This document shows positions 3,932-18,643 of a stretch of DNA of 28,700 bases, one piece after another. Position 1 is the first letter of the stretch, and the number at the start of each line of letters is the position of its first letter. The notes beneath the pieces were generated by a model, which was given only the letters and a program-made list of their open reading frames with translations, searched no databases and was not told the DNA's origin. A program made the translations under genes and the position numbers. The DNA comes from an uncultured virus (IMG/VR IMGVR_UViG_3300005239_000190). Lineage: Duplodnaviria > Heunggongvirae > Uroviricota > Caudoviricetes. The DNA lies in IMG/VR virus record IMGVR_UViG_3300005239_000190; one strand, 5' to 3'.

Positions 3932-3959
3932 ATATATGTAACAAATAAAAATAATACCT

Positions 3960-4163
3960 ATGCAAAAATTTAAAATTTCAACCGACAAATCCATTAAACT
4001 TAATGGTATCAAATTCAAACCATACACAGTAGGCAATCTGCCACCTTCATTCGGTTTCAAATACAATGAAGACAAAGATAAAGACGGAATTTATCAATGG
4101 TTTAACTACAAAGGCTTAACTTATGTCGAAGACAAAAAAACTATCTGGGATGCTTTTGCATAG
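3960..4163 (+). CDS. Hypothetical protein (67 aa)
   Basis: ORF track; follows motif copy 6. Confidence 0.75.
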   Translation: MQKFKISTDKSIKLNGIKFKPYTVGNLPPSFGFKYNEDKDKDGIYQWFNYKGLTYVEDKKTIWDAFA

Positions 4164-5273: not shown

Positions 5274-5276
5274 ATT

Positions 5277-5307
5277 TACAAATGTAATACGAACGCAAAT
5301 CGATAAT
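5277..5307 (+). promoter_or_regulatory. Conserved early motif copy 7
   Basis: TACAAATG TAATACGA ACGCAAAT CGATAAT. Confidence 0.8.
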
Positions 5308-5332
5308 ATAAATGTAACAAAAAACTAAAACT

Positions 5333-5521
5333 ATGTATTGTAGATGTGGAAATAAAGTACACCCCGTCCGTTTAGACTTAGGATATAACACGTGTGTGAA
5401 GTGCTCAACAACTAAAACATACTCGTATGTCCCAATCATTGAGCATAAAACGGGCAATACAATACAAATCGTCAGTCAAGAGGTGAGCGCTTCAGTGCAC
5501 AGATCTTGGCGACGTAAATAA
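5333..5521 (+). CDS. Small C4 zinc-finger protein resembling the DksA/TraR finger
   Basis: CRCGNKVHPVRLDLGYNTCVKC resembles the CxxCG..I...RL......CxxC pattern. Confidence 0.65.
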   Translation: MYCRCGNKVHPVRLDLGYNTCVKCSTTKTYSYVPIIEHKTGNTIQIVSQEVSASVHRSWRRK

Positions 5522-5562
5522 AGACCATGACGAATGGTTGAAACTTACTAATCGGTAAGCAA

Positions 5563-5738
5563 GAGAGGTTTAAGGTTGGAAGGACGAGTAGCTTAATTAG
5601 GTTAAGCCGCGACGTAAAACCAAAGGTTAACACATAAGTGAATTGCCAGAAAGACGGGATAAACAGAGAAAAGGGTATAAGTCAGGGCATACTAGTAAAT
5701 GACGTGCATCCCTAACATTCCAGTCCCGTCCACCTCTC
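5563..5738 (+). ncRNA. Putative multi-stem structured RNA
   Basis: Closing helix GAGAGGT/ACCTCTC (5563-69/5732-38); inner helix GACGGGAT/GTCCCGTC (5653-60/5723-30); hairpins GCTTAA/TTAAGC and AACC/GGTT; stem AGGG/CCCT; no ORF. Confidence 0.55.
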
Positions 5739-5745
5739 AAATATA

Positions 5746-5803
5746 CAGGTATGGGCACGAGTGTGGTGCTGTAACTCGACCGAAAAACATACGGGCATAC
5801 CTG
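5746..5803 (+). ncRNA. Putative small structured RNA (three-way junction or pseudoknot)
   Basis: Perfect 8-bp CAGGTATG/CATACCTG enclosing CGAGT/ACTCG and CCG/CGG. Confidence 0.5.
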
Positions 5804-5807
5804 AAAT

Positions 5808-5917
5808 GGGCGTGAAATGGTTAGACTATTAAACTACGTGCACCTAATATTGCAATGTTAAAGGTACAAAGCAGATGTTAAATAGTAACGCAGGTTCGAT
5901 TCCTGCCACGTCCACTA
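5808..5917 (+). ncRNA. tmRNA-like RNA: tRNA-like domain only ('mini-tmRNA')
   Basis: Acceptor stem GGGCGTG/CACGTCC with G3:U wobble and discriminator A; stemless D-loop ending in GAC; helix ACTATT/AATAGT; canonical T-arm GCAGG-TTCGATT-CCTGC; no anticodon arm. Confidence 0.75.
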
Positions 5918-6114
5918 TGGAAATAAATAAATATATAAAAACAGAGTTAGCGAAGCTCGATCGAGGTATCGTGGCCACGCCTAGCAACAGAGAACGGTTA
6001 GAATTGTTTGTTAAAGCAAACAACGGAGCCAACGACTTTTTACTAATGCAAATGGCGATTAATTTCGGTTATAAAATAGCGTTAGAAAATTTACAAACTG
6101 AATACGAACAATAA
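5917..6114 (+). CDS. Hypothetical protein (MEINKYIK...)
   Basis: ORF track 5875..6114; the upstream part overlaps the RNA gene, so ATG 5917 is preferred. Confidence 0.7.
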   Translation: MEINKYIKTELAKLDRGIVATPSNRERLELFVKANNGANDFLLMQMAINFGYKIALENLQTEYEQ

Positions 6115-6122
6115 TCGATAAT
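6092..6122 (+). promoter_or_regulatory. Conserved early motif copy 8
   Basis: TACAAACT GAATACGA ACAATAAT CGATAAT. Confidence 0.8.
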
Positions 6123-6140
6123 ATAATAAATCAAACAAAT

Positions 6141-7082: not shown

Positions 7083-7292
7083 ATGCCAAACATGAGTTAT
7101 TGCCGCTTCGAAAATACGGCAACAGATATGAGAGACTGCATCTATGCGATCGAAGAGCGTGATGTATACGAATTCAGCAACTACGAACTATCTGGGTTCA
7201 AAGACGTGCTTGAGTATGCACGAGATATTGTAAACATGGAAGATGATATTGAAAAAATAATTGAATACTATGAATCTTCTGACGCAAAATAG
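7083..7292 (+). CDS. Conserved phage hypothetical protein (NMSYCRFENT motif), copy 1
   Basis: ORF track; homologous copy at 8767. Confidence 0.85.
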   Translation: MPNMSYCRFENTATDMRDCIYAIEERDVYEFSNYELSGFKDVLEYARDIVNMEDDIEKIIEYYESSDAK

Positions 7293-7875
7293 TAAATTAA
7301 AAAAGACAAGTAAAGAACTCGGGCTCCGTGTGTTTAACTTCGGTATACCTGCATATAAATCTGCAAGTGGTAAGTTGACATGCCCGATGGCTGACGAATG
7401 TGTTAAATTTTGTTATGCCAAGAAAGGAGCCTACATCTGGTCTAATGTAAAACCGGCGTTTGAGAAGCGTTATCAGCTAACAAAGACTGACAACTTTGTT
7501 GAAGCTATGAACGCTGAAATACGTAAGAAGAAACCTGATTACGTCAGAGTCCATGATAGCGGAGATTACTACTCACCCGCATATCTAAAAAAGTGGATTG
7601 AAGTTGCTATACACAACCCAAGCGTTCGGTTTTACAGTTATACCAATATGGTAGATATGATGTTAAAGACCTCATTGCCAAGTAATTACGATATAATATT
7701 CAGTGATTCAGGCAAGCAAAAACATATGATAAATGAAAGAAAACATAGACACACAAAAATCTTTTCTACTAATAGCGATCTTGTATCTAACGGTTATGTG
7801 GATGCTTCTAGTATTGATCTGATGGCAACAAAGTGGTTCAGTAAAAACCACAAAGTGGGATTAGTATTCCATTAA
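7270..7875 (+). CDS. GP88-family protein (Cys triad, radical-SAM-like), copy 1
   Basis: TCPMADECVKFCYA and VRVHDSGD...FYSYT motifs typical of phage gene-product-88 proteins. Confidence 0.75.
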   Translation: MNLLTQNSKLKKTSKELGLRVFNFGIPAYKSASGKLTCPMADECVKFCYAKKGAYIWSNVKPAFEKRYQLTKTDNFVEAMNAEIRKKKPDYVRVHDSGDYYSPAYLKKWIEVAIHNPSVRFYSYTNMVDMMLKTSLPSNYDIIFSDSGKQKHMINERKHRHTKIFSTNSDLVSNGYVDASSIDLMATKWFSKNHKVGLVFH

Positions 7876-8766: not shown

Positions 8767-8976
8767 ATGCCAAATATGAGTTATTGCCGCTTCGAAAATA
8801 CGGCAAAAGATATGCAAGACTGCGTGTACGCAATCGAAGAGCGTGACGTATATGAATTTAGCGCCTATGAACTGCGTGGTTTTAAACACGTTTTAGAACT
8901 TGCGCAAGAAATTGTAGATATGGAAAATGATATTGAAAAAATAATTGACTACTATGAATCTTCTGACACAAAATAG
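8767..8976 (+). CDS. NMSYCRFENT protein, copy 2
   Basis: Homologous to 7083..7292. Confidence 0.85.
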   Translation: MPNMSYCRFENTAKDMQDCVYAIEERDVYEFSAYELRGFKHVLELAQEIVDMENDIEKIIDYYESSDTK

Positions 8977-9559
8977 TAAATTAAAAAAAACAAGTAAAGA
9001 ACTCGGGCTCCGTGTGTTTAACTTCGGTATACCTGCATATAAATCTGCAAGTGGTAAGTTAACATGCCCCATGGCGGATACTTGCGTTAAGTTCTGCTAT
9101 GCTAAGAAAGGAGCCTACATCTGGTCTAATGTAAAACCCGCGTTTGAGAAGCGTTATGAGCTAACAAAGACTGACAACTTTGTTGAGGCTATGAACGCTG
9201 AAATACGTAAGAAGAAACCTGATTACGTCAGAGTCCATGATAGCGGAGATTACTACTCACCCGCGTATCTAAAAAAGTGGATAGAGATTGCTATACACAA
9301 TCCGAACGTGCGGTTTTACAGTTATACCAATATGATAGATATGATGCTAAAGACCTCATTGCCAAGTAATTACGATATAATATTTAGTGATTCGGGCAAA
9401 CAAAAACATATGATAAATGAAAGGAAACATAGACACACCAAAATATTTTCTAGTCATAGCGATCTTGTATCTGCTGGCTATACTGACGCTTCATCTGTGG
9501 ACCTCTACGCCACAAGATGGTTTAATCCAACTAACAGAGTGGGATTAGTGTTTCATTAA
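8954..9559 (+). CDS. GP88-family protein, copy 2
   Basis: Nearly identical to 7270..7875 except at the C-terminus. Confidence 0.75.
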   Translation: MNLLTQNSKLKKTSKELGLRVFNFGIPAYKSASGKLTCPMADTCVKFCYAKKGAYIWSNVKPAFEKRYELTKTDNFVEAMNAEIRKKKPDYVRVHDSGDYYSPAYLKKWIEIAIHNPNVRFYSYTNMIDMMLKTSLPSNYDIIFSDSGKQKHMINERKHRHTKIFSSHSDLVSAGYTDASSVDLYATRWFNPTNRVGLVFH

Positions 9560-16909: not shown

Positions 16910-17184
16910 TGCCGAGTTTGTATGGCAAACGCGCGAAACCAATGCCAAATTATACGGCTAGCAACGAAGAGTGGTCGGCATATAAATATTGTGTTAAAAA
17001 CAATATAAGAATATCACCTTATGGCATACAAAACGATACTGATCACTGGCATATAGCTATTAGCTTAGGTCCATATCAAAAATGGGAAAAACCAAATATA
17101 TCGCCAAGTAAGTATTGTAGAAAAACAATATGGGTTGAATATTACAAAATGTGTAAATATTATTATGATAAATATAGAAAATGA
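16909..17184 (+). CDS. Conserved phage hypothetical protein, copy 1
   Basis: ORF track; homologue at 17534-17808. Confidence 0.8.
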   Translation: MPSLYGKRAKPMPNYTASNEEWSAYKYCVKNNIRISPYGIQNDTDHWHIAISLGPYQKWEKPNISPSKYCRKTIWVEYYKMCKYYYDKYRK

Positions 17185-17513
17185 ATATAGAGGACTTATG
17201 GCAGGAATTCTCTACGGAGGATCTGATAAGGCGGACAGAACAGGGACTGGGACGAAGGCTGTCTTCGGGAGAACGATTAAGCATGACATGTCACTTGGCT
17301 TCCCTATACTTACAGGAAAAAAGATAAGCTTCAATGCAGCAAGAACAGAATTGCTTTGGATATTACAAGGTAGAACTGATCTTAAGTATTTAGAAGATAA
17401 TGGTGTTAAGTATTGGAGGCCAGATTATGAGCGCTCAGGCAGAACAGATGAAACGTTAGGCCCTGTGTATGGAGCTCAATGGCGTAATTTTAACGGCACA
17501 GATCAGCTAAACA
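17165..17513 (+). CDS. thyA: Thymidylate synthase, 5' part (cut by the gap), copy 1
   Basis: DRTGTGT, FPILTGKK, ELLW, LGPVYGAQWR. Confidence 0.9.
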
Positions 17514-17533
17514 NNNNNNNNNNNNNNNNNNNN
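17514..17533. other. Assembly gap (20 N)
   Basis: Run of N. Confidence 1.
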
Positions 17534-17808
17534 TGAAAAGTTTATACAAAAGAAGAAAACCAAATTATCTTCCGCCGTATATGCCAACCCCAGAAGAACA
17601 AGATTGGAAATTATATTGTACAAGAAACAATATAAGAATATCACCCTGGGCTATGCCATTAGATGGCCAATGGAAAATATGTATAAACTTAGGCCCGTAT
17701 AAAAAAGGAGAGAAGTGTAACTTTGCTCCACACGTATACGATAAAGAAACATTATGGCCAGAATATTATAGAATGTGTAAATATTATTATGATAAATATA
17801 GAAAATGA
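17534..17808 (+). CDS. Conserved phage hypothetical protein, copy 2 (start at or in the gap)
   Basis: NNIRISP...LGPY...EYY.MCKYYYDKYRK shared with copy 1. Confidence 0.75.
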
Positions 17809-18643
17809 ATATAGAGGATTAGTGTCTGGTATATTAGGATCAGGCGTTGATAAAGACGATAGAACAGGTGTTGGAACTAAATCTGTATTTGGTAGACAGC
17901 TTGTTCATAATATGGCTTTAGGTTTTCCTTTATTAACAAATAAGAAAATGTATTTCAATTCCGCAAGGACTGAATTGCTTTGGATTTTACATGGCAAAAC
18001 AGATATGAAATACTTACAGGATAATAATGTAACTTATTGGGATGCTGATTATAAAAGATCAGGCAGAACAGACGGAACGTTAGGCCCTGTCTACGGTGCA
18101 CAATGGCGTAACTGGAAAGTAATTAATTGGGATATTATTTCAATTTATGAAGATCAGTTATTTAACTTAGTTAAAAATATAAAAGAAAACCCAAGCTCAA
18201 GAAGATTGATGGTTAATGCATGGAATGTTGGTCAATTAAAAGACATGGCCTTACCTCCTTGTCATTATGCTTTTCAAGTTTATATTAACAACGGTGTAAT
18301 GGATTTAATGTGGCAACAAAGATCAGCTGACGTGTTTTTAGGGTTACCTTATGATATTACAATGTACGGCCTGCTTTTAGAAATGCTAGCTAAAGGTGCT
18401 AATTTAAAACCTGGCAAACTTATTGGCCAGCTTGGTGATTGTCATTTATATAATAATCATTTAGAACAAGCTAAGGTATATTTAGATAGACCAAAAAGAA
18501 TATTACCAAAATTAGACCTTAAAGAAGGAATATGGTTTGACACTGTAGTTGAAAAAATTCATATACCAACAGCTGATAAGATTAAATTAATTAAATACAA
18601 TCCTTTACCCGCTATAAAAGCGGAGCTAAGTGTTGGTAAATAA
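17789..18643 (+). CDS. thyA: Thymidylate synthase
   Basis: DRTG, SRR, MALPPCH, QRSADVFLGLPYD, GDCHLYNNH. Confidence 0.95.
   Translation: MINIENEYRGLVSGILGSGVDKDDRTGVGTKSVFGRQLVHNMALGFPLLTNKKMYFNSARTELLWILHGKTDMKYLQDNNVTYWDADYKRSGRTDGTLGPVYGAQWRNWKVINWDIISIYEDQLFNLVKNIKENPSSRRLMVNAWNVGQLKDMALPPCHYAFQVYINNGVMDLMWQQRSADVFLGLPYDITMYGLLLEMLAKGANLKPGKLIGQLGDCHLYNNHLEQAKVYLDRPKRILPKLDLKEGIWFDTVVEKIHIPTADKIKLIKYNPLPAIKAELSVGK

Follow-up and report, generated by a model that had tools for sequence, protein, structure and literature searches.

The 28,700-nt stretch of DNA analyzed here (IMG/VR record IMGVR_UViG_3300005239_000190, referred to below as the window) derives from an uncultured virus of the class Caudoviricetes and encodes, at positions 5808–5917 of the plus strand, a short RNA that resembles transfer-messenger RNA (tmRNA) reduced to its tRNA-like domain (TLD). 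The 107-nt gene (5808–5914) is real and under selection, and its product is a member of a new, large family of a kind that has already been published once, for Mycobacterium phage DS6A. On balance, and with modest confidence, we read it as a tag-less tmRNA homologue of the DS6A kind that would be processed, alanylated and bound by SmpB, and would compete with the tmRNA of the host. Tag-less tmRNA mimics have hitherto passed for a peculiarity of a single mycobacteriophage; in the present data this design recurs as a conserved syntenic gene in a widespread group of marine phages, where standard annotation tools miss it.

Architecture and conservation of the RNA

All parts of the RNA lie on the plus strand in the order expected of a non-permuted tmRNA. 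The 5′ strand of the acceptor stem, GGGCGTG (5808–5814), pairs with CACGTCC near the 3′ end (5907–5914 including the discriminator, A5914) through G5808:C5913, G5809:C5912, G5810:T5911, C5811:G5910, G5812:C5909, T5813:A5908, and G5814:C5907. The 5′ strand is invariant in 22 of 22 aligned copies; G5810 corresponds to G3 and T5911 to U70. A D-loop mimic without a D-stem follows (AAATGGTTAG, 5815–5824) and aligns to the conserved tmRNA 5′ block of the Rfam model. Helix 2 is formed by 5825–5834 and 5877–5886, the 3′ strand being placed by the alignment of 22 copies, with nine of its 10 pairs formed in the window; it encloses a 42-nt hairpin (5835–5876, delimited from the fold), the variable inner arm, which occupies the place of the tmRNA pseudoknots and tag frame. 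A linker of AAC (5887–5889), where tmRNAs have GAC, leads from helix 2 to the T-arm, GCAGG / TTCGATT / CCTGC (5890–5906), whose perfect 5-bp stem is apparent both in the sequence and in the alignment to the Rfam model. The 3′ trailer is CTA (5915–5917) in the CCA position, so that no CCA is encoded, and its last base, A5917, doubles as the first base of the start codon (ATG) of the next open reading frame (ORF, 5917–6114).

The minimum-energy fold recovered the acceptor stem, T-arm and helix 2 (z = −2.8). A sensitive local search matched the Rfam tmRNA model RF00023 end to end (36.5 bits, E 5e-13 in a search of 701 nt), with 40 nt standing for 304 central model positions, and within the tRNA clan tmRNA was the best-scoring model, the tRNA model (RF00005) scoring lower. 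The RNA thus has every element of the TLD of a standard tmRNA (7-bp acceptor, G3:U70, A73, D-loop analogue, T-arm and helix 2), and a short hairpin connects its two tmRNA ends, which are not permuted, but the window RNA has neither pseudoknots PK1–PK4 nor the ∼350-nt length of tmRNA. A tRNA cloverleaf with a D-arm and a 7-nt anticodon loop is likewise lacking: ARAGORN called none, the tRNA model ranked below tmRNA, and no anticodon loop is conserved among 57 distinct copies of the element. The original prediction, made from the letters of the window, had described a tmRNA TLD without an mRNA-like domain, 107 nt long, non-permuted, with G3:U70 and with CTA in place of an encoded CCA, and had expected a covariance search to match both tmRNA ends without an anticodon call; the sequence, the RF00023 match at both ends, the fold and the silence of ARAGORN agree with it on each of these points.

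Relatives were collected in three ways. The exact 30-nt 3′ end occurred in 16 IMG/VR loci, and its exact 22-nt core in six contigs of metagenome-assembled genomes (MAGs) among the genomes of 185,579 species, all of the short form; every locus found by the exact 3′ end had the GGGCGTG 5′ half upstream and a different middle. A first alignment comprised 22 distinct copies found via the RNA's own sequence, from which a covariance model was built. Its acceptor stem and T-arm were nearly unvarying, and helix 2 had changed on both sides at all 10 pairs, giving a covariation score of 0.239 as opposed to 0.095 for shuffled alignments (reached by none of 500 shuffles) and 86.5% of cells paired as opposed to 37–48% when the partners were slid.

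Because these first copies had been found by the RNA's own sequence, a second sample was chosen independently of it, namely the best 80 of 158 IMG/VR relatives that encode the 62-aa protein upstream of the RNA (76–100% identity). The covariance model located the RNA no more than 750 nt downstream of this ORF in 54 of the 80 contigs; among the remaining 26, there are 10 with less than 700 nt of downstream sequence and 16 with at least 1,000 nt. The 54 matches reduced to 45 distinct sequences of 71–129 nt. All 45 kept G1:C72, G2:C71, G3:U70, and A73, whereas pair 4:69 was C:G in 32, G:C in 10, and A:U in three; the trailer was CTA in 40, CTG in three, and CAA in two. In a third sample of 37 loci, chosen solely by the 17-nt 5′ end, each locus proved to have the 3′ half as well, namely a paired T-arm and, after it, the 3′ side of the acceptor stem carrying U70 and A73. 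Covariation extends to the T-stem, for which the 57 distinct copies show seven combinations, six of them fully Watson–Crick. Family members range from 71 to 149 nt, and a sister subfamily has the acceptor GGGGGTG and the D-loop GGTTTTGAC or GGTATTGAC.

Alanyl-tRNA synthetase (AlaRS) is known to recognize its substrates by G3:U70 together with A73. That the G3:U70 wobble is kept while pair 4:69 covaries indicates selection on G3:U70 itself, strong enough for this alanine identity pair to persist beside a covarying neighbor. Retention of G3:U70 by homologues had been named beforehand as a test of the prediction, and it holds in 45 of 45 distinct syntenic copies and in all 37 loci found by the 5′ end.

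We regard it as very improbable that the element is an aberrant tRNA, either intron-containing or D-armless, or the dead remnant of a host tmRNA left at an integration site. A look-alike from Microbacterium phages is called by ARAGORN as a 90-nt tRNA-Pro, and phages do integrate at tmRNA genes, according to passages of PMC10865867. Against a tRNA, however, stand the lack of an ARAGORN tRNA call for the element in the window or in the 17 related loci scanned, the first rank of the tmRNA model within its clan, and the absence of a conserved anticodon loop among the 57 distinct copies. A remnant is hard to reconcile with the presence of both tmRNA ends, their exact junction and the purifying and compensatory selection on them, with the absence of a Pfam integrase among the 22 window ORFs scanned, or with a 22-nt 3′ end confined to the six short-form MAG contigs. 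An attP or integration remnant and an intron-containing tRNA were therefore rejected on the integrase search, the ARAGORN result and the selection on both ends, and the original claim that this is not a normal or intron-containing tRNA stands.

Beyond these marine contigs, neither the region nor the element had a blastn relative among 50,697 GenBank phage records, the single match being 29 nt in Microbacterium phage Gack. Four of the closest cultured phages as judged by the primase-helicase (Cellulophaga phi10:1, vB_RanS_PJN03, Tenacibaculum JQ, and a Flavobacterium elemo phage) had no tmRNA-like match. Among 151 Bacteroidia genomes the element was found in the seed MAG contig alone (87.8 bits), all others scoring at most 43.4 bits; the best 20 of these weak matches were 71–78 nt long, and the one inspected (L031) was an ordinary tRNA. 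The tally of 151 includes one unpublished genome (G097), which gave a weak match only and on which no claim is built.

Several relatives carry more than one copy. One MAG contig has two mini-tmRNA genes in tandem, ∼70 nt apart (L022:363–453 and 520–625; same as L027), the upstream copy being more divergent, with G3:U70 kept and CCA encoded. In L072 a second full-size frame lies ∼1.5 kb downstream (3932–4025), with acceptor AGGCGTG/CACGCCT, G3:C70 and discriminator T; by its sequence, this paralogue lacks the alanine identity pair. In a complete relative (G154, the contig of L004/L008), the mini-tmRNA at 379–488 and 63129–63238 is inside the direct terminal repeat, and a copy is therefore present at both genome ends.

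Proposed function

No conserved tag frame was found among the 57 distinct copies. Three of them have no stop codon in the arm in any frame, and the longest stop-ended arm frames differ between arm types, with no tmRNA-type tag ending and no peptide common to the types; a tag frame in the arm was accordingly dropped as a candidate, no frame being common to different arm types. The short form (27–38 bits) was also present in each of five related phage genomes, of which CheckV rates four as at least 90% complete, and none of the five has an SmpB gene or a tmRNA above the cut-off. With no tag frame, and no SmpB or full tmRNA in its relatives, the RNA cannot template tagging and must use host factors. 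The short form is also no one-off deletion, in keeping with the original prediction, full-length tmRNA being absent from these five genomes and from the 16 relatives that lack the RNA.

In the reading that we favor, RNase P would cut the 5′ end, and RNase Z or exonucleases the 3′ end, out of an operon transcript, after which CCA would be added and the RNA charged with alanine by the AlaRS of the host. The charged RNA would then be bound by host SmpB (and EF-Tu) and would compete with host tmRNA at stalled ribosomes, the products of which would escape tagging. Lacking both a resume codon and a tag frame, the RNA would bring about rescue or blockage without ssrA tagging, and the tag-and-degrade pathway of the host would be blunted during infection. 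G3:U70 is needed neither for SmpB binding nor by RNase P; its strict retention suggests that charging, and hence ribosome entry for tag-free rescue or block, matters, which makes a pure SmpB sponge less likely.

A number of points weigh against this competition with host tmRNA. To our knowledge, no benefit to a phage from blocking trans-translation has been demonstrated. Over the whole window, no family reached its Rfam gathering score (47 bits for tmRNA), and ARAGORN called no tRNA or tmRNA gene. The 16 contigs with at least 1,000 nt downstream of the 62-aa ORF contained neither the short RNA nor, by Rfam, a full-length tmRNA, from which it follows that the RNA is dispensable. The linker is AAC or UAAC in the phage RNA as opposed to GGAC in tmRNA, so that contacts with SmpB may differ. 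Shorter elements without G3:U70 and the portable inner arms, both described below, fit a processing or scaffold role as well. Finally, in the passages of PMC4131195 that concern a similar molecule, inhibition of tmRNA was independent of charging, and titration alone would then leave the conserved G3:U70 unexplained.

Neighboring genes hint that the RNA is handled like a tRNA. In eight relatives a tRNA-Met or tRNA-Gln gene begins 0–96 nt downstream of it (0 nt in L115 and 2 nt each in L122 and L055), and a tRNA-Met gene lies downstream of the 62-aa ORF in five of the 16 contigs without the RNA. These adjoining phage tRNA genes would suit a decoy, that is, a phage RNA that soaks up or replaces the target of a defense nuclease or toxin attacking tmRNA or the acceptor and T-arm of tRNAs, and on general grounds a constant frame with a fast-changing arm could mirror an arms race. 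We nevertheless consider a decoy of this sort decidedly improbable: the literature examined yielded no tmRNA-directed defense and no tRNA-like phage decoy of SmpB, and Pfam and PHROGs recognized no defense or anti-defense gene beside the RNA.

The family makes two questions testable: whether phages routinely interfere with or bypass the rescue-and-tag system of their hosts, and whether charging is needed for this, as for ribosome entry, or not, as for a simple SmpB sponge.

Inner arm, leader and genome context

Measured from the D-loop mimic to the T-stem, the arm is 29–87 nt long in the 57 distinct copies. The frame around it is constant at the nucleotide level, and the arm is exchanged wholesale between phages. 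With a match defined as at least 85% identity over at least 24 nt, 24 of 56 distinct arms (each at least 28 nt) recur outside any element in other contigs, where the status of being outside depends on a regular-expression mask of the frame that may overlook divergent frames. Most of the free-standing matches lie in the leader between the zinc-ribbon-like 62-aa ORF and the RNA, and L066 has five modules in a row there. In the window, a leader module at ∼5745–5800 contains a stretch (5754–5793) that is found inside the element arm in L016 and L022. Leader modules are shuffled among phages (related loci L052–L131, ∼2190–2460), and none matches an Rfam family; a hairpin-loop word, CGAAAA(A)C, recurs in them and is present in the DS6A arm too.

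The portable arm is the sole aspect that goes beyond the published example, and together with the array of leader modules it raises the question of whether the frame is also a natural RNA scaffold. The tRNA-like frame would then be a handle for processing and stability, a natural "tRNA scaffold" between whose halves leader hairpin modules are enclosed, cut out by tRNA-processing enzymes and stabilized. Once charged with alanine and bound by SmpB and EF-Tu, such a module may even travel to stalled ribosomes, and the effector that evolves fast may be the swappable arm rather than the frame, acting for instance as a decoy for a defense or RNA-decay protein of the host. We rate such a scaffold as unlikely. 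What speaks for it is a frame identical in nucleotides around arms that differ wholly in sequence and length, the recurrence of arms free-standing in the leaders of other phages, and a window leader that is itself predicted to be structured (z −3.3) and whose module reappears within two arms. A functional arm in the narrower sense, such as a decoy or an aptamer for a host protein, is similarly doubtful, given that the shortest arms (∼29–33 nt) are hardly more than a capped helix, that no arm matches a known RNA family, and that the free-standing matches hinge on the mask of the frame. A pure scaffold, moreover, has no need of G3:U70 and A73, which 45 of 45 copies retain.

The RNA sits within a run of small plus-strand ORFs of unassigned function, in a unit that probably starts at a copy of a promoter-like motif (5275–5311, placed from aligned flanks). 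The motif, TTTACAAA..AATACGA..N7..CGATAATATAA/T, occurs in eight copies on the plus strand between 1409 and 6126 (sites 1409, 1624, 1989, 2671, 3155, 3926, 5302, and 6117), 15–35 nt upstream of the ATGs of successive small ORFs, and is also found downstream of the mini-tmRNA in many related contigs. Allowing up to one mismatch, GATAATATAA had 15 matches with 7.5 expected, a number that none of 100 shuffles attained. It is probably an early promoter of the phage. The motif fits neither the sigma-70 consensus nor the Bacteroidetes −33/−7 consensus; a sigma-70 promoter scan gave no sites, the single "terminator" call was the T-arm on the wrong strand, and the Bacteroidetes −7 word TANNTTTG was not enriched (47 matches, 40 expected).

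Within this unit, the 62-aa ORF (5333–5521, +) has four cysteines in a zinc-ribbon-like arrangement (CxC...CxxC) and is the conserved upstream neighbor of the RNA in at least 80 marine phage contigs at 76–100% identity, with no match to a Pfam or PHROG family. It is followed by the structured non-coding leader of 286 nt with its hairpin modules (5522–5807, +; fold z −3.3 on the plus and −2.7 on the minus strand), then by the RNA, and then by a 65-aa ORF that starts at the final base of the trailer (5917–6114, +) and also has no Pfam or PHROG match. The next copy of the promoter-like motif (6090–6126, +) closes the unit. Among the neighboring small ORFs, Pfam and PHROGs recognized no SmpB, RNA-binding or defense family. 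Contigs of relatives from four RNA-library runs, one of them a viral-fraction sample, cover parts of the window including 5886–5917 (X15), contigs being unable to show transcription, strand or RNA ends.

The closeness of the next ORF suggests another role, that of processing punctuation, in which a tRNA-like cleavage signal within a polycistronic early transcript would release this ORF almost leaderless. Its ATG begins 2 nt past the discriminator, several relatives have an ATG within a few nucleotides, and these phages also have ORFs preceded by short elements of acceptor plus T-arm whose acceptor sequences differ. Yet many relatives have the promoter-like TTACAAA motif or a tRNA gene after the RNA instead of an ORF, and a cleavage signal needs neither the alanine identity set nor a tmRNA-type D-loop mimic, so we think punctuation improbable as an account of the RNA.

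The short elements just mentioned are 41–62-nt "top-half" forms with an acceptor stem, a D-loop mimic of the AATGGTTAA type and a T-arm, and without helix 2. They were recorded at L015:1325–1367 (minus strand), L113:4029–4071, L076:4034–4076, L059:3861–3903, L074:3761–3803, L009:2212–2270, L011:4384–4433, and L126:4018–4066. Some of their acceptors have G3:U70, others A3:U70 or unrelated stems, and an ATG often lies a few nucleotides downstream; they may be RNase P/Z processing signals.

That the window is phage is clear from its genes, which include those for a collagen-like tail fiber, an ERF recombinase, a primase-helicase, thymidylate synthase, ribonucleotide reductase, two sigma-like proteins and an M15 peptidase; no Pfam integrase was found among the 22 ORFs scanned. 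The G+C content is ∼36%, and the best cultured relative of the primase-helicase is in Cellulophaga phage phi10:1 (43% identity). Among the public runs listed, 20 contain part of the stretch, and 14 of these, labeled as marine, seawater, coral-reef or viral metagenomes (probably DNA), contain 0.30–0.47 of the sampled words.

Two further features lie elsewhere in the window. A cassette of a 69-aa phrog_8760 protein and a 204-aa GP88-family (PF17338) protein is duplicated in tandem at 7083–7875 and 8767–9559 (+), each copy being followed by a 74–75-aa phrog_3292-like ORF. A 133-aa ORF at 17135–17536 (+) aligns with thymidylate synthase over the first 111 positions alone and lies just upstream of a complete 306-aa gene for that enzyme (17723–18643, +); part of the gene may have been duplicated, or an inserted element may have split a gene.

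Comparison with known systems

The original prediction had also taken the RNA for an undescribed system, and in this it did not hold. Passages of Hudson, Lau and Williams (2014; PMC4131195) already list a "Mycobacterium phage DS6A (TLD only)" tmRNA together with the idea of SmpB titration, so that the kind of RNA and the main hypothesis had both been published; passages of PMC11915505 give the DS6A TLD-only form again and add mitochondrial and plastid forms that lack a coding sequence (CDS). The two sources differ in wording on the inhibition of E. coli tmRNA (Mao et al., 2009, via PMC4131195), which the relevant part of PMC4131195 reports for "a similar molecule" and that of PMC11915505 attributes to the DS6A form itself. 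In our literature searches on TLD-only tmRNA, phage and DS6A, the relevant papers all came from the Williams laboratory, and no published description of the present marine family was found.

Compared with standard tmRNA (RF00023, Bacteroidia), the window RNA shares G3:U70, A73, the D-loop analogue, helix 2a and the T-arm, and differs in having no pseudoknots, resume codon or tag frame and in being 107 nt rather than ∼360–410 nt long. CCA is not encoded in 27 of 30 Bacteroidia tmRNA genes inspected, which makes its absence ordinary for the likely host class. The D-loop words of the sister subfamily also occur in these tmRNAs, GGTTTTGAC in 15 of 30 and GGTATTGAC in two of 30, a pattern in line with an origin in, or an adjustment to, the Bacteroidia type of tmRNA and SmpB. 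The ends of the phage RNA are identical to those of no host tmRNA examined.

The CDS-less tmRNAs of organelles (jakobid and oomycete mitochondria, RF02544) are, like the window RNA, tag-less tRNA-like domains under selection. According to passages of PMC11915505, those of Mallomonadaceae plastids measure ∼65 bp, and the mitochondrial forms co-occur with nucleus-encoded SmpB. These organellar forms derive from the organelle's own tmRNA, whereas the window RNA is a viral gene whose host has a full tmRNA.

A look-alike is found in Microbacterium phage Gack (L132:339–430; PP978884.1 39854–39945) and 28 further Microbacterium phage records, as a 90–92-nt element in a tRNA cluster; it is annotated as tRNA-Pro in one record (BAjuniper) and otherwise unannotated. 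It shares with the window RNA a G3:U70 acceptor, an AATGG D-loop mimic, the absence of a D-stem, a T-arm and flanking tRNA genes, in phages whose host phylum is different from that of the window phage. Its best Rfam match is tmRNA (27.9 bits), but ARAGORN calls it tRNA-Pro(agg), 90 nt, with a plausible anticodon loop. The Gack element may accordingly be an unusual tRNA, one with alanine identity that decodes a proline codon, if it is not a tag-less tmRNA.

DS6A remains the closest parallel. We placed its element at JN698994.1 28478–28560 (tmRNA Website tmID 11587), where it scored 43.2 bits, below the Rfam cut-off, and ARAGORN was silent, as it was for the window RNA. Both RNAs are phage-encoded and join the two tmRNA ends by a short hairpin without a tag frame. 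In both, the 7-bp acceptor has G3:U70, the discriminator is an A with CTA after it, and a short helix 2 and a T-arm are present; the D-loop mimic of DS6A, AATGG...GAC, follows the same layout. Outside this common frame the two show no sequence relationship. DS6A is a temperate actinophage whose element, as far as published, stands alone, whereas the window RNA is one of a large marine family in which the frame is invariant, the arm hypervariable and portable, and the upstream zinc-ribbon ORF and leader conserved.

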